Source: Candidatus Borrarchaeum weybense (GTDB lineage Archaea; Asgardarchaeota; Sifarchaeia; Borrarchaeales; Borrarchaeaceae). From it: a stretch of 64,000 nt of DNA. The notes beneath the pieces are model-generated. The model had not been told where the DNA came from. It ran no database searches and saw only the letters and a list, made by a program, of their open reading frames with translations. The position numbers and the translations under genes are program-made. Positions 42,277 to 63,970 of the stretch are shown piece by piece. Where the stretch lies: NCBI GenBank assembly GCA_019057385.1, contig JAHQJS010000004.1:352001-416000 (forward strand), written 5' to 3'. The stretch's first letter is position 1. Each line of letters begins with the position of its first letter.

Positions 42277-43596
42277 TTGCTTATATTGTTTAAAGTCTTG
42301 CATTATTCTATTAAAATCGGTATAGAAGACTTTTGTCAATTCTATGTGTATTTGCATAAATTTATAACTTCATGTTGTTTAACTAATTCGCTGAAACTTC
42401 GGGGGGTAGAACTAATTCCAACTGTAACTGTCGCAAAAGGCGTAAATCCAGAAAATGCTGTTCAAAAGTTAGTTGATTTGCTGGGCGGTTTTAAATTTAG
42501 CGAATTATCGAATTATCTCCCGCTAAAGGGTAAGATCTTAATAAAACCCAATATTGCACATAATCGCCCTGCACCTATAACAACAAATAAAGATGTAATT
42601 AAGACACTTATAACCTCGTACTTAACTGATGCAGAAGAGATCTTAGTTGGAGATAGCGCTTCGTACCCGACAAAACACATCATGAATCGATCTTGGGAAC
42701 GAATACTTGAAGGTACAGGTTTAGATAAGGCAGTAAATGAAGCTGGGGGAGAAGTGGTCGATCTCGACCAGTACGAATTTGTCGAGGTTGAAAATCCAGA
42801 AAACAAAGTCCTAAGAAAACCATTAATTTCTAAACTTATTTTTGATGTAGACCATGTCATTAATGTTCCTGTTATGAAAACTCACCATATGACAACCGTG
42901 ACGCTCTGCCTTAAAAATTTGCAGGGTATCATCCATGACTCTCAAAAAACATATGCTCATCTTGATAACCTCCACCAGAAGTTAGTTGACATTTACAGAT
43001 GCGTTAAAGACAAATTTACCCTGAACATTATAGATGGAACGATAGCGATGGAAGGTCATGGTCCTGGACTTGGAACTCCCGTATATCTGAACACGCTTGT
43101 TGCGTCTCCAGATATTGTTGCCTGTGATGCAGTTGGTTGTGACATAATGGGCGTTGATCCATTTGGTATTGCACATGTACGATTAGCAAACGCACAAGGA
43201 TTGGGAGAAGGGAGACGTGATCATATAAATATAGTTGGCGATCCACTAGACAAGGTAAAACACCACTTTGCGTTACCAGATTTAGCTATAAGTGGCGTAT
43301 ATGAACGAATAGACATCTACCAAGGCGGAACTTGCCAATACTGCAAGGCAATCGTTAAGACAGCACTAGAATCTCTAAAGAAGAAAGGAGACATTTCCCT
43401 CGTCAAAGAGATGCAAGTTGTTGTAGGTAAAAATCCCTCCGAGCCCTCTACTGAATCAAGTTTGGATTTCATTGTCGGCGACTGCGCCTGTGAAAGCACA
43501 AACTGTAAAGGCACCCGGATCCTTGGTTGCCCTCCCTTCGATGCCTTCGTAAAAATCAGAAAAGCTGTGCATAACAATGCTTCTGAGAAAGTATGA
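42277..43596 (+). CDS. DUF362-domain Fe-S protein with a C-terminal Cys-rich domain
   Basis: ILIKPNI, VPVMKTH..T.VTL.LKNL.G, IDG..AMEG.GP, and C-terminal CQYC / GDCAC / GCPP. The real start is probably near 42415. Confidence 0.85.
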   Translation: MLILFKVLHYSIKIGIEDFCQFYVYLHKFITSCCLTNSLKLRGVELIPTVTVAKGVNPENAVQKLVDLLGGFKFSELSNYLPLKGKILIKPNIAHNRPAPITTNKDVIKTLITSYLTDAEEILVGDSASYPTKHIMNRSWERILEGTGLDKAVNEAGGEVVDLDQYEFVEVENPENKVLRKPLISKLIFDVDHVINVPVMKTHHMTTVTLCLKNLQGIIHDSQKTYAHLDNLHQKLVDIYRCVKDKFTLNIIDGTIAMEGHGPGLGTPVYLNTLVASPDIVACDAVGCDIMGVDPFGIAHVRLANAQGLGEGRRDHINIVGDPLDKVKHHFALPDLAISGVYERIDIYQGGTCQYCKAIVKTALESLKKKGDISLVKEMQVVVGKNPSEPSTESSLDFIVGDCACESTNCKGTRILGCPPFDAFVKIRKAVHNNASEKV

Positions 43597-43711
43597 TTGC
43601 TTATGTATCGGTCGAAATCGATTTTTACGATAAAAGCTTATATATCTTAACAGAAAAAATCTTATGGTATTTAGGTAATGCAATATATGTCTATTTTTGG
43701 GGGAGCAGTAA

Positions 43712-49037: not shown

Positions 49038-49427
49038 ATGAATTCAATTCAATTACTAAAGTTAATTGAAAAGTGTGGATCCATTAGTGGTCGAAAAAGA
49101 CTCCAAAAGCTTGTTTTCATCTCAAAAGAAAAGCATAACGTTCCTTTTGAATATAATTTCATTTTACACCTTTTTGGACCTTATTCTTCTGATTTGCAAA
49201 ATGATCTCTCCTTTCTTGTTGATATCGGATTCATAAAAGAAATACCACCAACTCAAGAAATTGAACCATATTTTTATGAATTAACAGACGATGGCAGGAG
49301 ATTTTGTGAAAAAAAAACATTAGATTCGTCTACAGAACAACAATTAACCGATGTTGTTGCAGAACTGTGCAATATTTCAACTGAGGAATTAGTACATATG
49401 TCATATCAGTTATTTTCATCGAAGTAA
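49038..49427 (+). CDS. YwgA-like winged-helix protein
   Basis: ISGRKRLQKLVF, YNF....FGPYSSDL..DL..L...G.I.E and YELT..G motifs. Confidence 0.78.
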   Translation: MNSIQLLKLIEKCGSISGRKRLQKLVFISKEKHNVPFEYNFILHLFGPYSSDLQNDLSFLVDIGFIKEIPPTQEIEPYFYELTDDGRRFCEKKTLDSSTEQQLTDVVAELCNISTEELVHMSYQLFSSK

Positions 49428-51020
49428 ATATTTCTCTTCAAATATGCGTTTAATCTTATCCCTTTTTTCTCTTGGCGAAAAAACGAGTATTTTTTCCGAT
49501 ATTTTACTCCTAATACGAAGCAGTTCACGTATAGGCTCTGCAACTGGCTCGTACGCAATACTTTCTGGGAAAAATCTCCCATTTTCCACTTTTAAAATGG
49601 GAATTCTCTGTTCGATCTCTCTGAGTTGTTTTGCCCTATTTGGTAAGTTGTCTATAATTACATCGCCCTTTACAATTCCTTCTTCTTCGGAAAACGAATC
49701 TTCAATCCATTTATTTAATGCGAAGGGTTCCTTACTATCTCTTAGTTCAGTAACTTTGTCTCTTGCATCAATAGATAGAGCACCCAACGTAGTTTCATAA
49801 GCTTTAACATACAAGCGTCTATTTCTAATTCGAGTACATAAGTCATATACAAGTTCAGAATCGCTATTTTCTAACCATTGAAGAAAACCTTTGTCATTCA
49901 TTGAAAGGTATACGGCGCAAAATTCTTCCTTATTCCAGTCTTCAGTCTCGATTTTCTCATAGATTGCTCTTTGTAACATTTTTTCAGCGCTTCTTACAGT
50001 TTTATGAAAATATACTCGATCATACATCCAATCTCTTGCTAGAACAAAGCTTTCAAAGGCACTAAATCCCTTTTCGCGTATAACAAAATGATATCTTTTT
50101 TCTCCTTCAAATTCTCTTTCTATAAAGGCTAATGATGCTATAAGTCTGTTGATATCAAAATATCCTAAGTGTACTCCTGTATTATGGGTGTCTCTCAATA
50201 AATACTCCATTCGATCAATGTCAAGTGGTGAGGAAATTAGATCTCTTATTAATCTCAGTGGTGCTTCATCGCAACCCTTTCCTTTAATGATTTCTACAAC
50301 TTCAGAAGAATCAATGTCTATCGCATGCAACGCTCTTTTTACCCCATGATCTATCATTAATTCGGAAAAAACTTCATGATTTCCCCAGTTAAGATTTTTC
50401 AGGACAAACTCACCAGCATGGCTAAAAGGACCATGTCCAACATCATGAAGAATTGCAACAGCTTTAAAGAGGTTGCTAAATTCTTTTTCTAAGAATTCTT
50501 CTAGTTTTACAGGCGGTTCTCCTTCAACTCTTACATTCACTTTTTTAAGCATCAAATCAGTGAGATATTTTGTACCTAGAACGTGTGCGAATCTTGTGTG
50601 AGTCGCATTTGGATACACTAGATGTGCCATTCCCAGTTGACAAAAACCTCTTAATCTTTGTATTTCGTATGTGTCGATAAGTACCCTTTCCCATGGTTCC
50701 AAAGCAATATTTCCGAAAATAGGGTCATTAACATAGAGCTCTTTGAATCTCTCCTTTTCTAAAAGTTCGCATTCTTTTAGATAACAGTTGTATTGCTTGA
50801 TGAAATGTCCTTTTTTTATATTTGGATTTGATACACTTAGTCTTCCATTGATAACGTCCATCTGTTCTTTTGCGGAGGAATCAAGAGGCGTTTGTGTATC
50901 AATTATTCCTTGAAGGAAATTTTGATCTCCTGGACTTAAATTTTCAATGTCGCAATCTCTCAATTTAAACATCCTTGCAATCTTAAAGCGATTTTTATCA
51001 AAAGGTGCTGATTCGCTCAC
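49416..51020 (-). CDS. HD-domain phosphohydrolase, SAMHD1/YwfO-like dNTP triphosphohydrolase family
   Basis: DPIFG.I, QRLR...QLG.A..VYP.ATHTRF.H.LG, LHDVGHGPFSH, HE, DIDRM.YL.RD and R..MY..VYFHK motifs. Confidence 0.92.
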   Translation of the reverse strand: MSESAPFDKNRFKIARMFKLRDCDIENLSPGDQNFLQGIIDTQTPLDSSAKEQMDVINGRLSVSNPNIKKGHFIKQYNCYLKECELLEKERFKELYVNDPIFGNIALEPWERVLIDTYEIQRLRGFCQLGMAHLVYPNATHTRFAHVLGTKYLTDLMLKKVNVRVEGEPPVKLEEFLEKEFSNLFKAVAILHDVGHGPFSHAGEFVLKNLNWGNHEVFSELMIDHGVKRALHAIDIDSSEVVEIIKGKGCDEAPLRLIRDLISSPLDIDRMEYLLRDTHNTGVHLGYFDINRLIASLAFIEREFEGEKRYHFVIREKGFSAFESFVLARDWMYDRVYFHKTVRSAEKMLQRAIYEKIETEDWNKEEFCAVYLSMNDKGFLQWLENSDSELVYDLCTRIRNRRLYVKAYETTLGALSIDARDKVTELRDSKEPFALNKWIEDSFSEEEGIVKGDVIIDNLPNRAKQLREIEQRIPILKVENGRFFPESIAYEPVAEPIRELLRIRSKISEKILVFSPREKRDKIKRIFEEKYLLR

Positions 51021-51078: not shown

Positions 51079-51786
51079 TTACATTTTAATGTTTCCTGAT
51101 ATTTTATAAACGGCGATCTCTTGTTCTTTTCTCTCGACTTTGTCTTTTTTAATAATTCTAAATCCTCTCCTATCCCTCGCTAGAATCATATCTTCAGGCA
51201 AATTGCTAAAGATGCTGAGAATGCTATGTTGTTTTAGAGGTTCTTCACTTTGCAAACTCGCAAATGAATAGAATAGTTCTTTTCGTTGTTTTAATTCATG
51301 TAAAATTTGCTCTCTAAATTTATCTATTAAATCCGAAGTAATTAAAATCCCTGTATCATACTCAGGCAAATTAGTGCTCAGTATAGATTCAATATGAACT
51401 TCTTCAAGTTTGAACTCCAAATTTGTTAAGAAAGGAGGATTTACACGGATAGTTAGTGTACCGCTGGGATAGTGATGAGATCGAACTAGTTCTCCTATTT
51501 GGGAGATAATTATTGCCTGAATGTCCTGTTTATCTAAAGAATTAATTACACCATATTCAAGCATAAAATAGTGAATTGTTCTAAGAAAAGCCTGATAAAT
51601 ATGCAAAAGTTGACGGAAAGTATGCCCTTCTTCAAGAAGCTCAACCTGATCTAAGATCTTCTTAATTTCCTGTAACATCTTCTCGATTTCTTCGATAGAC
51701 AGCTGGCTAGAATGTTGACACATCTCTCTAAGGGCTTCTTCAATTTCGTTCATTCTGTCCCATAATTCTAATTCTGAGTGCGACAA
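51079..51786 (-). CDS. Hypothetical protein, possible ScpA/kleisin-like subunit
   Basis: Helical N-terminus, and a C-terminal segment (ILHEL...FYSFASL....SILSIFSNL) loosely resembling the kleisin C-terminal winged helix. Kleisin-sized, and last in an operon after the kite-like gene. Confidence 0.4.
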   Translation of the reverse strand: MSHSELELWDRMNEIEEALREMCQHSSQLSIEEIEKMLQEIKKILDQVELLEEGHTFRQLLHIYQAFLRTIHYFMLEYGVINSLDKQDIQAIIISQIGELVRSHHYPSGTLTIRVNPPFLTNLEFKLEEVHIESILSTNLPEYDTGILITSDLIDKFREQILHELKQRKELFYSFASLQSEEPLKQHSILSIFSNLPEDMILARDRRGFRIIKKDKVERKEQEIAVYKISGNIKM

Positions 51787-51816
51787 TAATATGTAGCCTC
51801 CAAATTACGTGATCTA

Positions 51817-52407
51817 TTATTGTCCAGGCGGTAGAGATGCTTCAACTTCTGTTCCGATAAGAAGAGTATTTCGGATCATGGAGGTAATTTTGGAGATCCC
51901 CTCTTCATCAAATTCGAGAAAGAACGTTGGACCATACTCAAAGCGTAATGGATTGGTACTTGGTTTATAGAGTAACCCCCGTGAAACTAAGAATTCTACA
52001 TGATTGCGGATTTTCGAGATAATCACTGCCCCTTCGCGCAGTTCCTTTTCTAGTTCACTCCACAGTACAGGTTCTTTACGCTGCTCTCTTAACGTAATAA
52101 AAACCCCTAGAACAAAGGCTTGTGATTCACTGAGATAAGATCCAAGTTTTTGTTGAGAAATACAAGTAAGATAATAGTTGTTATCATAACTATAAATCTG
52201 TAGGGTGAATTCGAGGAGAGTAAGGCGCTTTTGGAGATGTTCAAGCAGTTGGCGTAGTATTTTAGGGGTTTTGCATGCTTCTTGTAGGGGTTGTAATGGA
52301 ATTCCTCGAAGTACTGTGATAATTTGTTGATTCTTATCACGAATAATGGTTTCTCTAAATAATAGGGGGATTATGGTTCTGATTAGGAGTTTTTCTGTAA
52401 AGGTCAT
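51817..52407 (-). CDS. Tandem winged-helix kite-like protein (ScpB/Nse3/JetB-like)
   Basis: LLEHLQKRL...EFTLQI....NNYYL, LSESQAFVLGVF, PVLWSELE, HVEFLVSRGLL and FEYGPTFFLEF match the ScpB/MAGE layout. Confidence 0.6.
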   Translation of the reverse strand: MTFTEKLLIRTIIPLLFRETIIRDKNQQIITVLRGIPLQPLQEACKTPKILRQLLEHLQKRLTLLEFTLQIYSYDNNYYLTCISQQKLGSYLSESQAFVLGVFITLREQRKEPVLWSELEKELREGAVIISKIRNHVEFLVSRGLLYKPSTNPLRFEYGPTFFLEFDEEGISKITSMIRNTLLIGTEVEASLPPGQ

Positions 52408-53210
52408 GCGCTCACCTCAGTTAACGCTCCAACACGTATCCAATTCTCTTTAAAAGCATCACCAAGCGTTTTGTGGCTACGGGGAAGTCTAACTGTGAGA
52501 TCAATAATCTCATAGTCATGATATTGTTTTAAGAGCATGTCAACAGCCTTAATTTTTGAGAAATCAAAGTATGATGCAATATATCCTGCAGGTGGGTAAT
52601 ATATTGTCATCATAGGTAAACTATAATGCCCAGTGATAAGTTTGGGACGGATGTCCACTGTATAAGATTTTTCTGGGTTCTGGAAGTTGTTTATTACACA
52701 GAGGTAGGAGTATAGTGTAGTCTGTACTAAATCCTCGATCTGCCACATAGGTGGCTTAAGCAAATTGCTTTTTACTTCGAGAATCCTGTGGATACCCCCA
52801 AGTTGATAATAACAGTCTGCCTGTCCAGTAATAATAAGAAGATCAGGAATCCAATATTCTTCAGAGAGTTGAACTGACCATCTTTGAGGTGCTGGTGACG
52901 ATGAGGGTAGCAACTCAATATGCGCCCTAATATACTCAGGCAACTCTTTAGTTAGGAAATGTAGCATGTATTCTTGTGGAACGCCTGCACTTAACAAGAA
53001 ATCTACCAAAGCACTTCTCTGTAGATATTTGAAAACATCTTTTGGTTGAAGTTTTTGAGTTAAGATCTGAACGAAAATGTCTTCAACTAATCTTCCCCAC
53101 ATGCCTTGTACATGCCGAGGGTATGCCACACTCTCTTTTCGAGTATGAAAATGATAGGTGTTCTGAAGAAACGAACGTAAAGCGCTAACCGTGACGTTTT
53201 GAAGAATCAT
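52404..53210 (-). CDS. PD-(D/E)XK (Cas4/RecB-like) nuclease
   Basis: WGRLVE, IITGQADC, ILEVKS and QTTLYSYL (RecB-type motifs). No Cas4 Fe-S cysteine cluster. Confidence 0.75.
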   Translation of the reverse strand: MILQNVTVSALRSFLQNTYHFHTRKESVAYPRHVQGMWGRLVEDIFVQILTQKLQPKDVFKYLQRSALVDFLLSAGVPQEYMLHFLTKELPEYIRAHIELLPSSSPAPQRWSVQLSEEYWIPDLLIITGQADCYYQLGGIHRILEVKSNLLKPPMWQIEDLVQTTLYSYLCVINNFQNPEKSYTVDIRPKLITGHYSLPMMTIYYPPAGYIASYFDFSKIKAVDMLLKQYHDYEIIDLTVRLPRSHKTLGDAFKENWIRVGALTEVSA

Positions 53211-54430
53211 ATCTCAGTTCTCCCATAGGCTCTTCTATAGAAGCGTTCAATTTCTCTATAAGACCCTAACGTTTGGTCAGTTAGAGGTTCACGATGATAA
53301 TGATATGCTAATTGTAAAATGTCAGCTTCGGTGCTGTATACGGTTTTTTGAGAAGATCCATTTAAAGCTTGGAATGTGTACTTAGACAGTTCCTCAATTA
53401 GGTGTTTAACCATGTTTTCTGTGCTGTCGTAAAGTTTATTCAGATGGTAAAGATTTTTCTTCTGAAAGGTCTTTGTATGGTTTTTGCGGGCCTTAACAAG
53501 CCTTTTTAGCAAATTTGAGGTGTTATAGACGCCTTCAAGACGGTTTTTCCATTCATTTAGAGCGTTCTTAAAGGCTTCATCCTTTGATTTAGCGATCAGT
53601 TCTGATACTTCGGGAGCAGGATTAATATCTTTTCGAGCTGCATATTGAATTTGATATCCTATAGCTGCTTCAACGGTTTTATAATCGAAACTGCTAAACT
53701 TCATTGTTAATTCTTCGATCAGAGCTTTTAAATCTCGAATCATGTGTAAATTTAGTAATTCCAGCCTTATAAATTCGTAGAATCGCTTCAGTTGTTGATC
53801 TGGGAGCGTAAGAATTTTCTCATACCCTTCCATGTAGAACTGAAGGTAGTTCTTTTTTGAATCTGAGTCCGTAAGGAACTCAATTAAACGATATGGCTCC
53901 TCTTCTAGGACAACTTGTCTACCACGGTCTGTTTTTTCTTTGAAAAACATCAAATTTAAAGTCATATTTTTTAACGCTTTGAAGGCACGATACCCACTTG
54001 GTCGAGGCAGTCCAACTACTGAAATCAAATATGCTGGAGAATATCGATATGTCATATATCTATGCTGACTATTCCTTACTGGTGGAATGAGTAAATCTTC
54101 TTTTGATACAAGGTTGTACGTTTCCTTATCTGCTTTGAGGATTGGTGATAGAACTCCGATTAATTTTAGATCCTGTAATATCCTTGGTTCTTGGTTAAAA
54201 TCAACTGGAAACTCGTCTCTATTCAAAGGTATGACATAATCACGTTGATTTTTAACGAGGAAACCTAGTAACTCAGGAAAATTAACGTTAATATTGAAAA
54301 ATACTTCTGCAGCAAGCATCATGCCTCCAAAAATAAGGCGTGTAGACTTTTGGGCCATAACGCCATTAATATAGTCTTGAACTGCGCGAATTCTCGTTTT
54401 TTCATCTTTTTTGGTAATTTTACTAGGCAT
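53207..54430 (-). CDS. Hypothetical protein (helical C-terminal half)
   Basis: 407-aa ORF overlapping both neighbours (ATGA overlap with the nuclease gene). No family recognised. Confidence 0.7.
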   Translation of the reverse strand: MPSKITKKDEKTRIRAVQDYINGVMAQKSTRLIFGGMMLAAEVFFNINVNFPELLGFLVKNQRDYVIPLNRDEFPVDFNQEPRILQDLKLIGVLSPILKADKETYNLVSKEDLLIPPVRNSQHRYMTYRYSPAYLISVVGLPRPSGYRAFKALKNMTLNLMFFKEKTDRGRQVVLEEEPYRLIEFLTDSDSKKNYLQFYMEGYEKILTLPDQQLKRFYEFIRLELLNLHMIRDLKALIEELTMKFSSFDYKTVEAAIGYQIQYAARKDINPAPEVSELIAKSKDEAFKNALNEWKNRLEGVYNTSNLLKRLVKARKNHTKTFQKKNLYHLNKLYDSTENMVKHLIEELSKYTFQALNGSSQKTVYSTEADILQLAYHYHREPLTDQTLGSYREIERFYRRAYGRTEI

Positions 54431-55850
54431 TTACTTCCACATCCTCTTTATATTTTATGAAATGATTATAATAAGCCTCCTGAACGTTCTTATAAATCTT
54501 ACAGAGATGATATTCACTAGATATTCTGGGATAACGGTGATCGGCATGAAGGAAGTTGGTATAGAAAACTCCATTAACTTGCCATGCAAGAAAAGATCTT
54601 AATTTTTTATCACTGGTAAAGACTGAAGAGAACCGTTCTTTTGCCATTGAACTGAAAATACGTGAAATAAGAAGTCCTAAGCCCCAGATTAACTGTCGGA
54701 ATCTTATGGTACTCGTTGAAAAACGCGAAATCAGGCGCCGTGCATCTTTACTTGCTTGCTGTGCCCCTTGCTCTAGATGATCAGTTACAATAACTGCAGC
54801 GAAATAAATCGCTAAATAGGCACTCCAACTTGTCACAAATGCGCTTGAAAGCATTCCACGGACATATCCATGAATAAGAAGTGCTGTAGTTAGAGTTTTT
54901 ACGTCATATTGATCAATAAAGTCTTTTAAAACCTCTGGAAGGCGAATCCATAATGTTGAAGAAGCGCCAGAATCTGGCGGTTCATCTGTACTTGGCTTAT
55001 GGGTGCTTCTAATGGAAATAATGCCGAAATCCTGCAGCCTCGTCCTCAGAGTATCTTCCCGAGTTTCTTTTGTAAGTGCTTCCAGTAATGGAATTTCTTG
55101 AGCATCTACCCAGTCAAACCATTGATTCACATCTGCGATTGTACCTCGCTCTGGGTCTTCTTCATCCTCATCTATGTCATTTTGGCGTGCTCGATCATCT
55201 ATATGTTCGATAATGGCATTAAGATACTGTTTCCATCGATGAGGATCACCTCCAGGTGAACCCGGTTGGTCATGAGCCAAGGGTACACTAGTTGTCATAT
55301 CTAGACGCGGTCTTTCCTCTGAACGCATGATACGCGAGAAAGATTCCAGCAGATCTTGATTTTTGATGATATATTCAAAAATCTCTCTATCATCTTTTGT
55401 TGGTTGTTTGATCCAGTTTACGTTCTTACGGGCGTTTATTAAGGCATCAGGCTCGATAATTTCATCCTTTGGGTCCACGTGATCTCCAAGTTTCCGATTC
55501 CAGAAGAATTGATTTCGTAAAACGTTGAAATATTTGGTTACATGCTCTGTGATTTTTTGTTTTTGGCAGTATTCTGTAAATTCTTGGTATATCTTGCTAT
55601 ATGGCTGTGCAGTAGGTGCTTTTTTAAATATAGCTTGAAATTTCTGGGCAAAATTATCGTATGCTTCTGATCTTCGCAATAAAGTAGAAAAAAAAGGTTT
55701 TAGCGGGTCATGTCCTTCTGATCTCTGTTTTCCTAGAGTAAACAAGGTGTACTGATAATTGCCAATTACTTGGTATAGTAAATATGGGATACTATCTGGA
55801 ATGCTCTTTCTCAATCTTAGGCTAAAGATGTTTGGATACGGTCTCACCAA
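54423..55850 (-). CDS. Hypothetical protein
   Basis: 475-aa ORF, first in the coupled operon, with an acidic loop (DIDEDEEDPE). No family recognised. Confidence 0.7.
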   Translation of the reverse strand: MVRPYPNIFSLRLRKSIPDSIPYLLYQVIGNYQYTLFTLGKQRSEGHDPLKPFFSTLLRRSEAYDNFAQKFQAIFKKAPTAQPYSKIYQEFTEYCQKQKITEHVTKYFNVLRNQFFWNRKLGDHVDPKDEIIEPDALINARKNVNWIKQPTKDDREIFEYIIKNQDLLESFSRIMRSEERPRLDMTTSVPLAHDQPGSPGGDPHRWKQYLNAIIEHIDDRARQNDIDEDEEDPERGTIADVNQWFDWVDAQEIPLLEALTKETREDTLRTRLQDFGIISIRSTHKPSTDEPPDSGASSTLWIRLPEVLKDFIDQYDVKTLTTALLIHGYVRGMLSSAFVTSWSAYLAIYFAAVIVTDHLEQGAQQASKDARRLISRFSTSTIRFRQLIWGLGLLISRIFSSMAKERFSSVFTSDKKLRSFLAWQVNGVFYTNFLHADHRYPRISSEYHLCKIYKNVQEAYYNHFIKYKEDVEVNA

Positions 55851-56046
55851 TCTCTATCACAACCTTAATCTTGTTTTTTCTTACTACAACGTGATGCTAT
55901 CCTAGATGGTTTCATGCTATTTCTCATATATTGTTTCTAGAATAAGAAAGTATTTATATCATAACTAGTCCATTACATATATCATGGATAGTTTCACCTA
56001 TATAAAGATATTGAAAGGAAATGCAGAAGCTTAAGAGGGATTCACA

Positions 56047-56976
56047 ATGGAATTTGAATACGGAGAGATTTATCCTTTTGACGAAGAAGGAGTTAACTAT
56101 TCTGGTACGAGTTGGTATGAACTGGTCGGGCTAGACACGGCAAAACAAAAACTTGAACAGTTTGTAAAGGCAATATTGCAGCAATCCTTTTTTGAAGATA
56201 CACGACTTCCCTTTAGACCCTCTATTCTTTTACAGGGTCCCCCTGGTACAGGAAAGACCGCTCTTACTCTTGCTTTTGGTCAAAAAGAAAAATTCCCCAT
56301 TATTATCTTGCTTACTACTAAAATTATCCGCGCAAAACTAGGTCAATCGGGGGAAAATCTAAGTAATGCCTTTGCGTACGTCAAAGATTATGCTATTCAG
56401 AGAAAAAAACCATTGATATTGTTCATCGATGAATTTGACTCTTTCGCTCGCCAACGGGATGACGTACAAGAAATAGGTGAGATTAAGCGGTTGGTTAATT
56501 CGTTATTAACTGAATTAGATGTTTTAATCGCCCAACATAAGAATATTATTCTCATTGCAGCTACTAATCATGCTAACACCATTGATAGGGCCGCATTCCG
56601 AAGATTTGCTATTCAAATTGATTTTACTATTCCAGCACCTGAGTTACGTCATCATATTTGGAGTGAGTTTCACCGTAGAATTCAGTTAAGAATTCCAGAG
56701 TGTAAGTGGGATCTTGACACATTAGTGGAACGAACTGAAGGATATACTGCAGCTGATATCGAGCGTATCGTTCTTAGCGCAGCTATCGAATACATACATC
56801 AGGATCTCGACACAATCAATACGGAATTGCTTCTCCAACAATTAAGGTATGTGACACCCACATCCAAGCACATGGGCAAGGAAGAATTGTCTGATCTTTT
56901 AGACCTAGATAGTATTGATCTCCGCAAGATTAAAGGAATTACCGATGGATTTAAGACTCAAGCAAGTCGTTTATAA
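56047..56976 (+). CDS. AAA+ ATPase (CDC48/FtsH-type single module)
   Basis: Walker A GPPGTGKT, Walker B LFIDEFD, GEIKRLVNSLL, AATNH and the arginine finger DRAAFRRF. Confidence 0.93.
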   Translation: MEFEYGEIYPFDEEGVNYSGTSWYELVGLDTAKQKLEQFVKAILQQSFFEDTRLPFRPSILLQGPPGTGKTALTLAFGQKEKFPIIILLTTKIIRAKLGQSGENLSNAFAYVKDYAIQRKKPLILFIDEFDSFARQRDDVQEIGEIKRLVNSLLTELDVLIAQHKNIILIAATNHANTIDRAAFRRFAIQIDFTIPAPELRHHIWSEFHRRIQLRIPECKWDLDTLVERTEGYTAADIERIVLSAAIEYIHQDLDTINTELLLQQLRYVTPTSKHMGKEELSDLLDLDSIDLRKIKGITDGFKTQASRL

Positions 56977-59900
56977 CTCTCTTTTGTGGAAAGTAACGGA
57001 CGCCAAGAGTATGAGTTCAAAAGAAAGCTTAAAAACAGCGAACTTCCAAGACATGTATCTGGTTTTAAAAGCTGTCGAAGTAAACAATTTCGGAATACAT
57101 AAGCATTTAACAATGTCCTTTGAGAAACCTATCAACTTAATTGTTGGGGCAAACGCAGTTGGAAAAACTACACTCTTAGATGCTGTTAGCATTGCTTTAG
57201 GTGGAGAGAGTGATCGCTACGGGACTCTCAAAGATTTAGTAGGTTATGTTGGACCCGCGGGAGACAAAGCTTCAGTAACAGTGTACTTGAGAAATCCGTC
57301 TAATGAGAACAAAAATCACCCACTTGTTGACTATGGAATATATACGAACTACGTGAAAGAAGAATTAAAAATTGAGGTCACAATCACCCGAGATTCAGTT
57401 TACTGGCAAGTAAATGATCGACAAAAAAAGCATGGCCGACAAGAAATTCGGAAGATGCTTCAAAGTGCAACCATTCGGATAGATATGTCTGATGAGATTT
57501 TGTTTACACGTAAAGACACGATTGATAAGTTCATGAGCGGAAGTCCTGTCGAACAGTTCCAACAAATTCTCACTTCTCTTAAACTCGCGAACTTACAGGA
57601 AGATATCCAAAACACTCAAGGTGAAGTCAAGAATTTACAAAATAAACTCCCGGAATTAGATTATCGACGGAAAAGTCTTGAGAAGGATCTTGAAGTAGCT
57701 AAACAGTTGAAAGAACAATATGAGCGAAAGTTTGACTTATTAGACCAAAAAGCAAGATTAACAAACATCTTGAACTGGATAGAGTATAATGAATGGCAAA
57801 CACGACTAATAGAGTTAGATGAGCAGACAACTCTCTTAAAAAAAGATCTTGAGGAGTTACAACACGAATACCAAGAAATAGAAACTCAATCTAAGCAAAA
57901 CAAACGAAATGAGCAGTTATTACAAGACCAGCTAAACGAGATGCAAACAAGGCTGACAGATTTAACCCGCCAAAATGAGGAGAGACTCCGAAATATCGGC
58001 TTAATAAAAGAAGATATTGCTGGGAAGGAGGCGGAACACCGTATCAAAGATCAGTACCTTCAAGAAAATGTTCAAAGACAGGAAAATTTGCAAAAAATCT
58101 ACCAAGAAGAAATTATTAAAGGCTCTCTCTTGTCATTAGAAGATTGGAAGAATTCTAAACCATTAATTGAGGAAAAAAGACGTGCACTAAAAGACTTACA
58201 GCAAAAAGATATACAGGCACTACAGACATGCAATAGCCGGTTATCACATCTTGCCACACGGATCAAGCGGTATGATACGCAGGAAAATCAAATACTCAAT
58301 GAGTTAGCTAAACTGAATCAAACTGTAACAAGTGGAACAAAATTTAATGCTGGGGAACACCATGTATTAGCACTACGCCGAGCCTTGGATCAGCTTCTTT
58401 GGGGGAAAAAAGTTACAAAACCGCTATTTCAGGAGATTTTTATAAAACCTGATGGCGAACTCTGGGAAGGAGCCATAAATCATGCGCTTGGGGGATTGCG
58501 TTCATATGTTCTAGCTAAGGATGCGGCAACAATTAATCAATTGAGAGAGTACATGGAACAGAACAATTTCAGTGTTTGGGTCGCACGTTTACCCAAAATA
58601 GCAAATATTCCAACTAGATCACTACAATCTCTTCCTGAAAACTTAAAAGATCTTATAGTAGGCTGGATTGACGATTTTTTGGAGTTTGATGATCCATTTA
58701 TTGCTACCTATCTTTTAGCGAGAACTCGCGCACTTCTGGTAAAGAGTAATGCTTCCGCCACTGAACTCTTAGAACTGGCTAAAATAACGGGCGCAGACGT
58801 GTACACTGCGCAACCCTCGGTATTTAAACCTGATGGACGCTTCCGCACGAACGTCCGAACCTCCTACTCATTAGGAAAAAGAACTGATAATATCGAGAAA
58901 GTCATAGAACTTCAAACAAAATTAGAGCACATCAAAAATGAACGCGCAAAATTAATAGACCAGCGTTTAAAGATTCTTGAAAAAAAGGCAGAGCTTCAGG
59001 ATAAGCAAGCTCAATTGCAAGAACAAATCGATGCATTACAAGATCAAATCACTCACATGGCCAAGAAGGATCCTACATCGATACTGAAATCTATTGAAGA
59101 ACTAGACAAAACGATTAAGGAGCAACATAAAGAAATTGAGCGAATAGCAGAAGAGTTAGAAAGCACTAAGACTCGATTAAAGCCATTAACAGAGAATACC
59201 TTCATTGAGGAAATTAAATACCTTAATAATGAGATCCCTAAAATTCAAGAACAGATTGGGGGATATAGAACTCACGACCAAGTTCTTGAAAATCGTTTAA
59301 TTGAATTAAAGTCAAAAATTGAAACTATGAAAGCCGAATATCAAGATATTGAAAGAGATCTAGAGCTCCGCCGCAGTAAAGTTGCACAATATAAAGAAAG
59401 CTTGGTCGATCCTGCCCCAAAACGCCTTCCACCCAAAACAAAAGTTCTGAGAGAAATTTATGAAATTGATGGTGCTGTAAATCAAATCACAGCCACTGCT
59501 TATGATGTAGAGCAGTACGAGAAACTAGAGAAATATTATCAAGAAACAGGACAAGATATTGAGAGAGTTTCACAAGCACTAGATGAAACTAGACAGCAAC
59601 TTGAAGATTACTATCAAGAATGGAAACAACGAGTCAAGTTTGTTCTTCAACAGCTTCAGGATGTGGCGAACTTTTTACTATCTCCTTTCATTCAGGTTAG
59701 ATGCTCTACAACTAATTCCTTGGATATGAAACAGATTGGTCTAAAAGTAGAGTTTACTAACAAGACGAATGGAAACGAGAAATATGAACTTTATCATGTG
59801 GCTTCCGGTGGTGAGCGTGCTTTAATCACTCAATCATTGTTCTTAGCTTTACATACGCTGAATCGAAGTTCTCCTATCCACATTGTCGATGAATTTACTC

Positions 59901-60106
59901 AACGTTTGGACGAAAAATATCGCGGTCACGCCTTTATCATGGTTAAACGCCTTCTAGAAAAACTCAAGGAAATAAACGGACAGAATGGCGGTTATAACTG
60001 GAATCTGATTCCTCAGCTCATTTTAGTTGCACCAATAGTAGTAGGAAGCTATATCCCTCCAGAAATAGATACTCAATATTTATTCAAAGTAACTAAACTG
60101 AGTTAA
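56915..60106 (+). CDS. SMC-family ATPase, SMC5/6-like
   Basis: Walker A GANAVGKTT, two long coiled coils flanking a hinge-like domain (KPLFQEIFI..WEGAINHALGG), signature ASGGER..LFLAL and Walker B/D-loop IVDEFTQRLD. The start may be ATG 56945, 57011 or 57053. Confidence 0.9.
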   Translation: MISARLKELPMDLRLKQVVYNSLLWKVTDAKSMSSKESLKTANFQDMYLVLKAVEVNNFGIHKHLTMSFEKPINLIVGANAVGKTTLLDAVSIALGGESDRYGTLKDLVGYVGPAGDKASVTVYLRNPSNENKNHPLVDYGIYTNYVKEELKIEVTITRDSVYWQVNDRQKKHGRQEIRKMLQSATIRIDMSDEILFTRKDTIDKFMSGSPVEQFQQILTSLKLANLQEDIQNTQGEVKNLQNKLPELDYRRKSLEKDLEVAKQLKEQYERKFDLLDQKARLTNILNWIEYNEWQTRLIELDEQTTLLKKDLEELQHEYQEIETQSKQNKRNEQLLQDQLNEMQTRLTDLTRQNEERLRNIGLIKEDIAGKEAEHRIKDQYLQENVQRQENLQKIYQEEIIKGSLLSLEDWKNSKPLIEEKRRALKDLQQKDIQALQTCNSRLSHLATRIKRYDTQENQILNELAKLNQTVTSGTKFNAGEHHVLALRRALDQLLWGKKVTKPLFQEIFIKPDGELWEGAINHALGGLRSYVLAKDAATINQLREYMEQNNFSVWVARLPKIANIPTRSLQSLPENLKDLIVGWIDDFLEFDDPFIATYLLARTRALLVKSNASATELLELAKITGADVYTAQPSVFKPDGRFRTNVRTSYSLGKRTDNIEKVIELQTKLEHIKNERAKLIDQRLKILEKKAELQDKQAQLQEQIDALQDQITHMAKKDPTSILKSIEELDKTIKEQHKEIERIAEELESTKTRLKPLTENTFIEEIKYLNNEIPKIQEQIGGYRTHDQVLENRLIELKSKIETMKAEYQDIERDLELRRSKVAQYKESLVDPAPKRLPPKTKVLREIYEIDGAVNQITATAYDVEQYEKLEKYYQETGQDIERVSQALDETRQQLEDYYQEWKQRVKFVLQQLQDVANFLLSPFIQVRCSTTNSLDMKQIGLKVEFTNKTNGNEKYELYHVASGGERALITQSLFLALHTLNRSSPIHIVDEFTQRLDEKYRGHAFIMVKRLLEKLKEINGQNGGYNWNLIPQLILVAPIVVGSYIPPEIDTQYLFKVTKLS

Positions 60107-60280
60107 GATCCGTAAATCTACACTTGTAGGGCTTATACGTTATTATCAAATATTGTGAAGAATAAAAAAAATATTTATTGTACATTTACATAATATGATC
60201 AAAATATGAAGACTTGAAAAATTAATGTTTCATTTTCATAATTGTACATGTTCCAGTATGACGACTATAAAGGTGACTAA

Positions 60281-63133
60281 GTGATAGAACATAAACCTTC
60301 CTCGAAGGAAACGTATCTACTAGGCATTGACTTAGGCACTACTAACACCTATGCCTGTTTATCAAAAATTCGAGATGAAAGATTATTAGATATTATTCCT
60401 ATAGGTATAACGCAACTCCGACAAAGTTTTCAGACAACTACTGACGAGTGTTTACCTTCGGTAGTTTACTTTCTTAAACAAGAAGAATTTGGTGTAAATT
60501 GTCTTGTAGGTAAAGGCGCTAAGGAACTTATTACTTCAGAACCAGAACGGGTTATCTGTTCGTCTAAAACTCACATTGGAACCGATAAAGTCTACAAGAT
60601 CAACGGGATGTCTTATATACCCCGTGATATCGCAGCAATTATTTTTGATACAGTCAGGCAGAGTGTGCAAGTATCCTCTCCAGAATATCTCCAAGGCGAT
60701 ATAATTGTAGGTGTTCCATCTCGATTTAATGCAGAACAAAAGGCAGATACTCTTAAGGCTGCAGAAAGAATATTTACGAAAGCATCAACTATCTCTTTAG
60801 TGGAGGAACCAGAAGCTATTGCTTTGTGGTATCTCCATGAGGAGATTAATACTGACAGTAAAGATACCTTTCTTAAAAAATGGTGTTTTGGAAAAAGGCG
60901 ATTTTTAGTTATAGATATGGGTGGGGGAACGTTAGATGTAGCCATTATCGAGGCGACACTACGTGACGATGTCGAATTTGATAAAGAGAATCCAAAAACA
61001 TATCCAATAGTAAAACGAATAGCAATTGGTGAATTTACTCAATGTGCAGGAGATGAATTTGACAAATTAATAGCGGAGAAACTACGCGTAGAACTTTATC
61101 CTAATCTTTCAGACGAGGAATATGAACACTACAAGCCATGTTTTCTCGAACAAGCGGAACGGATTAAGTTGGCTATTAGTCTGAAGATGCGAATGCAGGA
61201 CGCTTCCACTACGGTCCGAATACTGTTCTATTTATTAAGCACACATGAACCAAAAGAAAGCATATGGGATGTTGATAAGTACTATAACGCAGTTAAATCA
61301 CTACTTCCTCCCTCTGGCTTTACGTTTTATCATGATTATATCGAGGAATACAATCGAAAACAATGGTTGAAAACTACTATCCTTCGTCCGATTATTGATG
61401 CATATATCCAAATAGATGAGAATGAACGTCTAATTGATGGCCGTTTGTTCGATGTATTCATTCTAGCGGGCGGAATGGCTGAATTTCCCTTAATTGAAGA
61501 CATCTTTCATGAAATTTTAGGTGTTGCACCTGTTCGTCTGCGGAAGGACCCCAAGAGAGCTGTTGCTCGAGGTTTAATTGTTGAACATTATTTTGAGAAA
61601 TTTGACAGTATTTCTAAAAAAACTATCGGACAGACTTATGGCGTTAAAGTTTTTGATCGGAGCAAGCAACAGCCTGTATGGAAAAAATTTATTCGAAGAG
61701 ATGAAGAACTCCCGATCATTAAGAAAAATGTGCTTTCTGGAACATTGAGTGCGAAACAATCTAAGATCCTTTTTTCACTAGGTAAAAAACCTATAGGGGA
61801 GGAGAATTATGCACCTATCCGAGACTACTCGGTTGCATTAGATCCACCCCCAACAGAGCAAATTGCCTTCTCTCTTAATGTTTTAGTGAATGAATCTGGT
61901 GCAATTGAAATAGATGGAAAACGAGGTGATAATTGTGGGTTTATTCGGATAGGGGCATTAACAGGCGATGAAAGAGAAGAAGATTATGAGCCATTAATAC
62001 CTGAAGCGACTGATCGGAAGTTCACTCGTGAAAAACTTAACGAGTTACTTCCTAAAAAGGAATCGATAATTCGACCAAGAGAAGATAAGAGCCCTAAGAC
62101 AGTTTTAATTGAATTTAGGAAAGTTCTTGATCAAGAAAAGAAAAACAGAAGGAAACTCAGTCAACATCGTGAAGAATTTGCAAATTTAAGGAAAATTAGA
62201 AAAGCGCTCCGATCTCTTCAACAGAGTTACAGAAATAGATTTGGAGATCTTAAGAAACTCAAACATAATATAGCCACAAAAAATGTCTGTTTTGATGAAC
62301 TTCGAGAATACGTCCTTCTATTTGGTGATATTGTTAAATCGCATGTTCAGCGTAATGAGCCATGGAAACTTGACCAATTAACTGCATCTATTATCGCTGA
62401 TTTGACGGAAGTGATTCTAGAATATGGTCTACGTGGTGAAGTGCTATTTTCTTTAATGAGGCTCATTAGATATGTTATTCTCAAAATTCCAACTTTCCAG
62501 CCACCTAGATTCCAAGATTTGATTGATTTCGCCTTAGAAGAAAGTGGTAAATGGACTGAAGAGGTTTACTACGCCTTAAGTTTGATGGCAAATCCTTCAT
62601 CTTATCTTATCGACAAAATTATTTTTGCCCTCACATCAAAATACGGATTTAGTGCACTTCATGCCCTAGGCTTGTTTGTTAGACGACAAAATGAAACACA
62701 AAGTTATGATTTTCCAACTATACAAACTATTTGGGTGACTCTTCTTCATTTATTCACAAAAATAATTGAAGATGCTCCCTATGAAATTGAATTACCTCCA
62801 CTCAGCTCTGATATTATAGCCAATAGCAGATTTCAATCAACTAAATTTGACAATTTAAGAAAGAACGAGACATTTCTAGAAAAACTCTTCTTTATATTGG
62901 CTTACTTCGTGAAAAGTGAAGTTGATCTGCCCGAAAAACAGCGATATCCTGAAATGCTCAGAATAATATTTAACAGCAATGAATTACCAGAGATGCTTCA
63001 CTATCAGATCCAATTATGCCTGTACTGGTACGAAGGACAAAAATTCTTAGAAGAAATCGATGCTCGGGATGAAGAATTAGAGACCCAGGAAATAAGTAAT
63101 AGGATTATTGAGTATTATCTCCAAATTAACTAG
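60281..63133 (+). CDS. Atypical Hsp70/DnaK-family protein with a long C-terminal helical extension
   Basis: GIDLGTTNT, LPSVVYF, VGVPSRF..EQ...T..AA, EEPEA.AL, DMGGGTLDVA, AGDEFD, LAGG....P and DP..AVARG motifs. About 380 aa of non-DnaK C-terminus follow. Confidence 0.88.
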   Translation: MIEHKPSSKETYLLGIDLGTTNTYACLSKIRDERLLDIIPIGITQLRQSFQTTTDECLPSVVYFLKQEEFGVNCLVGKGAKELITSEPERVICSSKTHIGTDKVYKINGMSYIPRDIAAIIFDTVRQSVQVSSPEYLQGDIIVGVPSRFNAEQKADTLKAAERIFTKASTISLVEEPEAIALWYLHEEINTDSKDTFLKKWCFGKRRFLVIDMGGGTLDVAIIEATLRDDVEFDKENPKTYPIVKRIAIGEFTQCAGDEFDKLIAEKLRVELYPNLSDEEYEHYKPCFLEQAERIKLAISLKMRMQDASTTVRILFYLLSTHEPKESIWDVDKYYNAVKSLLPPSGFTFYHDYIEEYNRKQWLKTTILRPIIDAYIQIDENERLIDGRLFDVFILAGGMAEFPLIEDIFHEILGVAPVRLRKDPKRAVARGLIVEHYFEKFDSISKKTIGQTYGVKVFDRSKQQPVWKKFIRRDEELPIIKKNVLSGTLSAKQSKILFSLGKKPIGEENYAPIRDYSVALDPPPTEQIAFSLNVLVNESGAIEIDGKRGDNCGFIRIGALTGDEREEDYEPLIPEATDRKFTREKLNELLPKKESIIRPREDKSPKTVLIEFRKVLDQEKKNRRKLSQHREEFANLRKIRKALRSLQQSYRNRFGDLKKLKHNIATKNVCFDELREYVLLFGDIVKSHVQRNEPWKLDQLTASIIADLTEVILEYGLRGEVLFSLMRLIRYVILKIPTFQPPRFQDLIDFALEESGKWTEEVYYALSLMANPSSYLIDKIIFALTSKYGFSALHALGLFVRRQNETQSYDFPTIQTIWVTLLHLFTKIIEDAPYEIELPPLSSDIIANSRFQSTKFDNLRKNETFLEKLFFILAYFVKSEVDLPEKQRYPEMLRIIFNSNELPEMLHYQIQLCLYWYEGQKFLEEIDARDEELETQEISNRIIEYYLQIN

Positions 63134-63199
63134 ACTTGAGATATCATCACTAGAACAAGAAGATTTTAGGCAAAGTTATTAGTCTATAAAAATTAATGC

Positions 63200-63970
63200 T
63201 CAAATCTTAAGAAGATCCGAACGCACCGTAAAATATTTTTTGCGAGGATTATCCACATTAAGATGAACCAGTTTCTCAATCGCAAAGGTTTTCATATATT
63301 TATCAAAATACTCTTTTGGTAGAAGAAGAATTGGACAGTGCATCTCATAAGCCCCTTCTTTCTTTTTATCTATAACTTCTCCTTCCTCGATTTTGAGCTC
63401 AATTTGACGTGCCAGTGATTTTAAATACTTTAGAAGAGTTTCTCGTCTGCAATACTCGGGAAATCTCATTGGTCGTTCACTAATAACTTCAGGAAGATTG
63501 CTTGATAAAAATTGTGAAATTTCACGAATTTTTTTAACACAATTCTCTCCTAGAGGTGTAAGAGTATTGTTTTGGGAAGAAAAAAGTTGTTCCACACGTC
63601 CCTTTGGATCCTTTCCGATATATTTGTAAACTAAATTAGGTTTGACATTGCGTATTATACCCCAACAGAATAATTGCACTTTTCGCACTTTCAATAATTG
63701 AAAATCTTCCTTAGTCCAAGAATCAAAAACTTCTAAGGCGTCTAATCCAATTTTTCGTATTGTACATCTCTGAACGCCTGCTTCCTTCACAATCAAACCC
63801 ATGTCTTTGAGTAACTTAACCGCGCTATACGCAAATTTACCTTTTGGAAAATATACTGTTCTTTCAGCGTCACTTTCATTAATAGATTCAGCGTCTCTTA
63901 GATAACAGAGAACCTCAATAACATCTTTTCGATCAAAAATCCGGATCATTAAAACTTCGTCCATAGCCAT
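63200..63970 (-). CDS. Hypothetical protein, possible N-terminal winged helix
   Basis: 256-aa ORF with a GTGAGGA RBS. AVKLLKDMGLI...IRKIG resembles a wHTH wing. Confidence 0.6.
   Translation of the reverse strand: MAMDEVLMIRIFDRKDVIEVLCYLRDAESINESDAERTVYFPKGKFAYSAVKLLKDMGLIVKEAGVQRCTIRKIGLDALEVFDSWTKEDFQLLKVRKVQLFCWGIIRNVKPNLVYKYIGKDPKGRVEQLFSSQNNTLTPLGENCVKKIREISQFLSSNLPEVISERPMRFPEYCRRETLLKYLKSLARQIELKIEEGEVIDKKKEGAYEMHCPILLLPKEYFDKYMKTFAIEKLVHLNVDNPRKKYFTVRSDLLKI

Follow-up and report, generated by a model that had tools for sequence, protein, structure and literature searches.

Does an SMC5/6-type complex serve an archaeon as a weapon against foreign DNA? The question is raised by a divergent gene cluster of the Asgard archaeon Candidatus Borrarchaeum weybense (assembly GCA_019057385.1, contig JAHQJS010000004.1, forward strand 352,001 to 416,000), a stretch of 64,000 nucleotides named the window below. 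In this cluster, a gene for an SMC protein (structural maintenance of chromosomes) stands beside those of an AAA+ ATPase, a putative nuclease, and candidate kleisin and kite subunits. SMC, kleisin, and kite proteins together form loop-extruding complexes, to which the anti-plasmid system Wadjet (JetABCD) adds a Toprim nuclease, while human SMC5/6 silences viral episomes. To our knowledge, two prokaryotic SMC-based immune systems have been recognized, Wadjet and Lamassu, and we know of no prokaryotic SMC5/6-type complex tied to defence. An earlier note, made from the nucleotide sequence of the window, had proposed an undescribed defence complex at this place. The analysis reported here indicates with high confidence that the locus is a conserved accessory module whose base is an SMC-kleisin-kite ring of SMC5/6 type, accompanied by an AAA+ partner of its own.

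Gene content and conservation of the module

The module occupies positions 51079-63970 of the window and comprises nine genes. The earlier note had described seven, and a scan for open reading frames (ORFs) recovers each of them, position for position, together with their overlaps and gap. Five form a minus-strand operon, with overlaps of 8, 4, and 4 nucleotides and one gap of 30 nucleotides; the other two, coding for the AAA+ ATPase and the SMC, are on the plus strand. The seven genes are thus real, but the conserved block is larger, as it also includes the genes of an Hsp70-like ATPase and of a basic 256-residue protein. The module is counted as nine genes because the same nine recur in two comparison contigs, L001 and L014 (L and G labels designate comparison contigs and genomes, G000 being the source genome of the window).

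Homologues of the SMC were collected by an exhaustive HMMER search over 1.84 billion representatives (E <= 1e-3). This search matched 453 proteins. Four of them are closely related, with identities of 83, 39, 34, and 33%, beyond which identity falls to ~25%. Contig L001 (SMC 82-83% identical) harbors all nine genes, their products being 64-88% identical to those of the window. In L014 (SMC 39%), eight genes are found in the same order and all nine recur at 29-61% identity. There, the gene of the 256-residue protein (40% identical) has moved to the opposite end of the block, and its retention despite this relocation indicates that linkage to the module survives rearrangement. The order (407-residue protein tail)-nuclease-kite-kleisin is found again in L007, at 48-60% identity. 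That independent metagenomic contigs share this gene set even at an SMC identity of 39% is more than expected by chance. The N-terminus of the L014 SMC is intact although its gene call is short. After the stop codon of the AAA+ gene and ahead of the SMC reading frame, a 12-nucleotide unit is repeated three times (L014:9540-9600), and the intact N-terminus is not preceded by a canonical in-frame start codon; an alternative start, or slippage or an assembly artefact, is possible.

A reduced form is found in a Heimdallarchaeota lineage (L011-13, G052, L030), in which the kite and kleisin genes diverge from an AAA+-SMC pair followed by the gene of a 752-residue orphan. This orphan was considered as a relative of the Hsp70-like protein, with which it exhibits no detectable relationship. 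In L010 (SMC 34%), an AAA+-SMC pair adjoins a SocA/Panacea gene on a short contig. The two divergent operons, which had been expected to occur together elsewhere, do so in L001, in L014, and, in reduced form, in the Heimdallarchaeota lineage. Altogether, kite and kleisin genes accompany those of the AAA+ protein and the SMC in four lineages, the SMC identity going as low as 33%, and these four genes form the invariant core of the module. The nuclease, initially taken as a defining part, does belong to the full version, but it is missing from the Heimdallarchaeota version, as are both large orphans. Further searches were unproductive: a metagenome pattern scan with the nuclease profile yielded no new loci, and a genome scan with the kite profile yielded a single additional contig, of the L011 type.

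The SMC belongs to the SMC5/6-type clade

The longest ORF of the SMC (56915-60106, plus strand) encodes 1063 residues, the length given in the earlier note. The start is most likely the ATG at 57011, since the 82%-identical homologue starts there, which gives a protein of 1031 residues (57011-60106) beginning 34 nucleotides after the AAA+ gene. Pfam identifies SMC_N (E 2e-21) and, weakly, SMC_hinge (E 0.004). The Walker A motif GxNxxGKT, the SGGE signature, the Walker B motif hhhhDE, and an ALGG motif in the hinge region are invariant in five homologues. By these motifs, the protein can be regarded as a bona fide hinge-containing SMC.

In sequence searches of the PDB, yeast Smc6 (E 3e-8) and Smc5 come out on top, and eukaryotic proteins named SMC6 occur among the matches of the exhaustive search. 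A quick LG+G4 tree was built from 47 sequences: the subfamily, 9 canonical Asgard SMCs, 17 archaeal SMCs of a second type, 14 eukaryotic SMC6-type proteins, and Rad50/SbcC outgroups. In this tree, computed under a site-homogeneous model and without eukaryotic SMC1-4 or bacterial SMCs, the subfamily, the archaeal second-type proteins, and the eukaryotic SMC6-type proteins split from the canonical Asgard SMCs and Rad50/SbcC with a Shimodaira-Hasegawa-like approximate likelihood ratio (SH-aLRT) support of 98.6. The subfamily forms a clade (SH-aLRT 100), as do the archaeal second-type SMCs (98), which are its sister in the first tree. These data support the assignment of the SMC to the SMC5/6-type clade, in line with the SMC5/6-like motor initially proposed. 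A proline of the H-loop (LVAP/ITP) had been considered as an SMC5/6 marker and was withdrawn: it is not diagnostic, because the canonical SMC of the same genome also carries ITP.

This canonical protein, encoded on another contig, is the only other true SMC of the genome, the remaining two SMC_N matches being of Rad50/SbcC type, with Mre11-like partners. Its gene (L003:9272-10291, minus strand, equivalent to G000:C7:299272-300291) is directly preceded by an AAA plus AAA-lid ORF ending 2 nucleotides upstream of the smc start. It is followed by genes for 245- and 176-residue proteins, the presumed kleisin and kite, neither of which matches Pfam ScpA or ScpB. These two Pfam models find nothing significant in the whole genome and are uninformative here, as they fail even beside the canonical SMC.

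A kite and a kleisin-like protein complete the core

The 196-residue protein (51817-52407, minus strand), which had been described as kite-like, aligns with the kites of mainstream archaeal SMC5/6-type operons by hhalign (probability 97.3%, E 1.7e-11, 152 columns) and by BLASTP (E 2e-8). Its AlphaFold2 (AF2) model displays two winged helices in tandem, with a predicted local distance difference test (pLDDT) value of 64. The top 50 Foldseek matches are dominated by ScpB, MukE, JetB, Nse1, Nse3, and MAGE proteins (best E 5e-3). VIA returns ScpB (Z 7.3) and the two-domain Nse1/Nse3 (Z ~7, 120-134 residues aligned). Sequence profile and predicted fold together support its identification as a true kite.

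The 235-residue product of the next gene (51079-51786, minus strand) is modeled by AF2 (pLDDT 62) as a four-helix N-terminal domain, a disordered linker (~104-143), and a C-terminal winged helix. Its best full-length structural matches are the Nse4 chains 7tve_G and 7qcd_F, although weak (Foldseek E 0.4-0.9), followed by MukF; VIA also returns 7qcd_F, again weakly (Z 8.7 over residues 1-227). The earlier note had suggested modeling this kleisin candidate with the SMC head. When the protein is modeled together with the head and neck of the SMC, the interface score ipSAE is 0.63, compared with 0.28 for the best control; of 80 solved complexes, 58 attain that mark, and of 110 mismatched pairs, 2 do. 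At least 75% of the contacts are common to the runs, and the partner pLDDT is at least 63. Residues 130-229, which encompass the winged helix, are predicted to contact the last SMC strands (1009-1030), a geometry that is canonical for a kleisin on its SMC cap. Predicted fold and predicted cap binding thus support a protein that behaves as a kleisin. The kleisin-like call of the earlier note is sustained by the architecture, the Nse4 matches, and the modeled contact, but not by sequence homology to known kleisins.

The two operons diverge from a promoter region of 196 nucleotides (55851-56046), in which GTnTCA boxes recur and a TATA-like box precedes the AAA+ gene. It contains local direct and inverted repeats. 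Alignment of the intergenic regions of the window, L001, and L014 reveals that several GTnTCA boxes are kept at ~11-12-nucleotide spacing and that a TATATAAA element is also retained. These conserved boxes suggest a shared regulation of both operons, in which the basic 256-residue protein might possibly act as the regulator.

The five-gene operon could, in principle, be independent of an SMC/AAA+/Hsp70 operon that happens to lie back-to-back with it. Divergent transcription would be compatible with two such unrelated units, as would the fact that the three largest proteins of the five-gene operon exhibit no recognizable SMC link. This explanation is largely refuted, and we consider it highly improbable: the only candidate kite and kleisin genes for the SMC sit in the other operon and co-occur with the AAA+ and SMC genes in four lineages, the kleisin is predicted to bind the SMC, and the repeats of the shared intergenic region are conserved.

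Nuclease, ATPases, and orphan subunits

The 268-residue protein (52404-53210, minus strand) is probably a RecB/Cas4-like PD-(D/E)XK nuclease, its activity being predicted from conserved motifs. The G129-x-x-D132, E145-V-K147, and Q163-x-x-L-Y167 motifs are invariant across four homologues (38-88% identity), and its language-model features score 0.96 against PF12705-bearing PD-(D/E)XK clusters. The nuclease proposed by the earlier note therefore finds its GxhD, (D/E)xK, and QxxxY motifs in the expected order, but no profile-HMM match.

The AAA+ ATPase (309 residues, 56047-56976, plus strand) is of the classic clade, with intact Walker A and B motifs, and matches Pfam AAA (E 1.4e-24) and AAA_lid_3. 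Its best match is IetA, a component of an anti-phage system, both in PADLOC (E 7.7e-55) and in NCBIfam (IteA, E 1.3e-48), where its 166 bits fall far short of the 510-bit cutoff; the alignment to these profiles is confined to the ATPase core (residues 30-273). The AAA+ gene is located directly upstream of the SMC gene in all five lineages of the subfamily. The AAA+ proteins of the window, L001, L014, and L016 have an intact Walker B and sensor-1, while in those of L011 (9130-10008) and L010 (1072-1965) the Walker B glutamate is gone (DG, DN), as is the sensor-1 asparagine. That the gene is kept upstream of the SMC despite degenerate motifs speaks for a structural role within the complex. In L016 (1555-11687), an AAA+ protein is linked to an SMC5/6-type SMC in a second architecture, where the SMC is 26% identical, a divergent operon encodes four orphans and an active-looking AAA+ protein, and a kleisin-like gene lies downstream of the SMC.

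The Hsp70-like protein (950 residues, 60281-63133, plus strand) combines an actin/Hsp70 nucleotide-binding domain with an unmatched C-terminal region of ~500 residues. Pfam HSP70 is found over residues 14-224 (E 1e-14), and a profile search against the PDB reaches DnaK (E 2.7e-18). Only residues 12-225 align to nucleotide-binding domains, with conserved DxGxT and DxGGGT motifs; the other ~700 residues match nothing. Its gene follows that of the SMC in L001 (76% identity) and L014 (40%).

The remaining three proteins are orphans conserved with the module. The 475-residue protein (54423-55850, minus strand), whose gene opens the minus-strand operon, is kept in L001 (64%) and L014 (34%) and possesses one conserved hydrophobic helix near residues 337-355. 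The 407-residue protein (53207-54430, minus strand), basic with a net charge of +12, is kept in L001 (73%), L014 (37%), and L007 (partial); its only lead is a weak one, to winged helix-turn-helix/replication proteins (ESM Atlas 0.88). The basic 256-residue protein (63200-63970, minus strand), possibly a winged-helix DNA binder or regulator, has homologues in L001 (80%) and L014. Searches of the three in Pfam, NCBIfam, PADLOC, PHROGs, PDB-sequence profiles, and the ESM Atlas returned nothing significant, and hhalign was negative against kite and kleisin profiles and against the orphan proteins that the L016-type operon encodes.

The module is cargo of a strain-variable island

The SMC subfamily is found in two of 400 Asgard genomes (G000 and G052), and neither it nor the nuclease was found in four genomes of the same genus. 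A genome of the same genus, G308, carries a canonical SMC 99% identical to that of the present genome. In G308, the sequence corresponding to window position 43618, the end of a DUF362 gene, runs directly into that of window-coordinates 72037-73305. A 298-nucleotide direct repeat of 79.5% identity, a duplicated 3' end of the DUF362 gene, borders the intervening segment at 43322-43618 and at 72037-72334, the latter beyond the window. The contiguous flanks in G308 and the duplicated gene end establish that the module is cargo of a ~28.7-kb strain-variable island, inserted into the 3' end of a gene and missing in G308.

Up to ~43.6 kb, the genes of the window are of housekeeping type. From 44.1 kb on, they are a TIR-RNase III-Argonaute operon (prokaryotic Argonaute, pAgo), then an HD protein gene, and then the SMC module. 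The HD protein (49416-51020, minus strand, 534 residues, HD plus HD_assoc_2, weakly dGTPase-like) is not considered part of the module, because L001 lacks it at the corresponding position. A TnpB/OrfB_IS605-type gene (27445-28515, plus strand), with OrfB_IS605 and a Cas12f1-like TNB domain, is found among the housekeeping genes upstream of the island.

Possible function of the module

Besides the observed conservation and linkage, we infer how the other subunits assemble, what the module targets, what triggers it, and whether it defends its host. The nine genes would constitute one accessory module carried by an integrated, strain-variable island. At its core, an SMC5/6-type ring would be formed by an SMC homodimer closed by the 235-residue kleisin-like protein, whose C-terminal winged helix would sit on the SMC cap, with the 196-residue kite decorating the kleisin. 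The AAA+ ATPase, a putative subunit, may remodel, load, or gate this ring. To this core, the full version would add the RecB-family nuclease, the two co-translated orphans (475 and 407 residues), the Hsp70-like ATPase, and the small basic protein. Most likely, the SMC ring would survey DNA, and the nuclease would be the effector against plasmids or viruses, on an SMC lineage other than that of Wadjet.

We judge the chances about even that the module is directed at foreign DNA, its effector being the nuclease, as a functional analogue of Wadjet. Such a role is plausible because of the island context, the patchy distribution, the nuclease, and the IetA-like ATPase. The pAgo/TIR and HD genes on the same island and the SocA/Panacea gene beside the L010 copy also support it. 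A more specific proposal, which we regard as possible though somewhat doubtful, is that of an SMC5/6-type ring acting as a dedicated immune machine against extrachromosomal DNA, armed by the RecB-like nuclease and controlled by the AAA+ and Hsp70-like ATPases. In this proposal, the 475- and 407-residue orphans would be a loader/regulator pair resembling Nse5/6, and episome restriction would predate eukaryotes.

Several observations weigh against a defence complex of this kind. The known lineages are only about five, and all are metagenomic. The Heimdallarchaeota version, devoid of the Hsp70-like gene as well as of the nuclease and large orphans, indicates that the SMC-AAA+ core needs no nuclease and may have a non-defence job. 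The degenerate motifs in L010 and L011 indicate that ATP-driven remodelling is not universal. The nuclease candidate has no match in Pfam, NCBIfam, PADLOC, PHROGs, or PDB-sequence searches. For the 235-residue protein, no Pfam match and no sequence homology was detected, hhalign to mainstream archaeal kleisins giving E 0.14; its N-terminal domain makes no confident neck contact below residue 130, with the neck included in the model. The predicted cap binding may reflect likeness to, or memory of, solved SMC-kleisin complexes, and the kite and kleisin-like models, built from 5-sequence alignments, are of modest confidence (pLDDT 62-64).

Some of the same facts would fit a module that serves the island itself or DNA repair, in which an SMC5/6-type complex compacts, segregates, protects, or recombines DNA and the RecB-like nuclease works in recombination or repair. 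End resection is a common task of RecB/Cas4-type nucleases, an integrated element carries the module as cargo, the L014 copy adjoins an Orc1/Cdc6 gene, and the reduced Heimdallarchaeota version has no nuclease at all. Eukaryotic SMC5/6 is, moreover, primarily a repair and recombination complex (PMC10586767). We hold this role to be rather unlikely, however, as pAgo/TIR and HD genes stand alongside as in defence islands, the distribution is extremely patchy, and the AAA+ protein resembles IetA. In addition, when IMG/VR viral contigs were searched with profiles of the kite, the Hsp70-like protein, and the SMC, no relative emerged, the only matches being generic P-loop ones.

In this genome, a core of SMC5/6-type SMC, kleisin, and kite resides next to an Argonaute module on an island that is mobile and varies between strains. 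Should the module restrict foreign DNA, it would offer an archaeal precedent for the antiviral role of eukaryotic SMC5/6 and a new way of arming an SMC ring. If the immune-machine proposal is true, the restriction of episomal DNA by SMC5/6 would predate eukaryotes and not be a late eukaryotic co-option. Whatever the function, the obligatory AAA+ partner suggests an undescribed protein-remodelling step in the control of SMC rings. Some lineages keep this protein even with dead ATPase motifs.

Comparison with known systems

No named system matches the module in PADLOC, be it Wadjet, Lamassu, or IetAS; the earlier note had proposed that the absence of a complete match would support novelty. With IetAS, the module shares the AAA+ protein, for which IetA profiles are the best match; it differs by the lack of the IetS protease and by an AAA+ score of 166 bits against the NCBIfam cutoff of 510.

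In Lamassu (LmuABC) as well, an SMC-superfamily ATPase is paired with an effector of PD-(D/E)XK type, in the surroundings of a defence island. This raises the possibility of a Lamassu-like abortive-infection sensor, in which the SMC would not extrude loops but sense DNA ends or replication intermediates, and would release or oligomerise the PD-(D/E)XK nuclease for indiscriminate degradation. The SMC does match the PADLOC LmuB profiles in part (E 3e-22 and 8e-19), and Cap4-type PD-(D/E)XK nucleases are among the Lamassu effectors (PMC10586767). LmuB is, however, Rad50-like, without hinge, kite, or kleisin (PMC10586767), whereas the SMC of the module has a hinge and kite and kleisin partners and groups with SMC5/6-type proteins. 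As no match to the PADLOC LmuA or LmuC profiles was found in the five small proteins either, we regard such a sensor as quite improbable.

Wadjet (JetABCD, MksBEFG) resembles the module by its SMC, kleisin, and kite with a dedicated nuclease gene, and by being accessory, patchy, and island-borne. By analogy, it is likely the functional counterpart, with SMC-based sensing and execution by a nuclease. The components are nonetheless different: Wadjet uses a MukB-type SMC and a Toprim nuclease, while the module possesses an SMC5/6-type SMC and a PD-(D/E)XK-like nuclease, together with the AAA+ and Hsp70-like ATPases and the orphans. PADLOC profiles of JetA, JetB, and JetD do not match the five small proteins at E <= 0.1, and JetC matches the P-loop region only (E 9e-10).

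Eukaryotic Smc5/6-Nse1/3/4, which restricts extrachromosomal viral DNA (PMC10586767), provides the best matches of the SMC (Smc6, Smc5), of the two-domain kite (Nse1, Nse3), and of the full-length kleisin (Nse4). The module differs by having a single SMC gene and a single kite gene, with homodimers presumed, as well as a nuclease and two extra ATPases; the RING and SUMO-ligase parts of the eukaryotic complex were not detected in it.

Also close to the module are the archaeal SMC5/6-related operons. In Asgard and TACK archaea, SMC-kleisin-kite operons of this type have been described by van Hooff, Raas, Tromer & Eme (bioRxiv 10.1101/2024.01.07.573240), and SMC5/6-related proteins of archaea are also covered by Yoshinaga & Inagaki (PMC8665677). 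In agreement with the former (bioRxiv 10.1101/2024.01.07.573240), the mainstream loci display the order SMC-kleisin (~250-300 residues)-kite (~200 residues). The ORFs directly upstream of eight sampled mainstream SMC genes have no AAA Pfam match, and the 5-10 kb upstream of three of these genes have no BLASTP match to the AAA+ set of the module. In one Asgard family, a subtilase gene (Peptidase_S8; L024:47-1141, L026:11-1141) lies directly upstream of the mainstream SMC; in one such genome (G082, L045), a further 8.5 kb upstream contains no module-related AAA+ gene. One mainstream operon (L017:4187-7378) continues into genes for a 154-residue protein, a JAB deubiquitinase-like protein, and a ThiF/E1-like protein, a gene order that hints at a link between an SMC5/6-type complex and a ubiquitin-like system.

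With these operons, the module shares the SMC superclade, as a sister branch, a homologous kite, the kleisin architecture, and a presumed homodimeric ring. Its SMC is only ~25% identical to theirs and belongs to a clade of its own, known from five lineages. Their kite and kleisin genes are downstream of the SMC gene, whereas those of the module are divergent from it, and the module adds an AAA+ gene before the SMC, the nuclease, the Hsp70-like ATPase, and three orphans. A literature search found no description of an archaeal SMC system linked to an AAA+ protein, a nuclease, and an Hsp70-like protein. The system is therefore not undescribed in its entirety: since SMC5/6-related SMC-kleisin-kite operons are already published (bioRxiv 10.1101/2024.01.07.573240), what is new is restricted to the added subunits and to the setting, a strain-variable island where the known operons are lineage-conserved.

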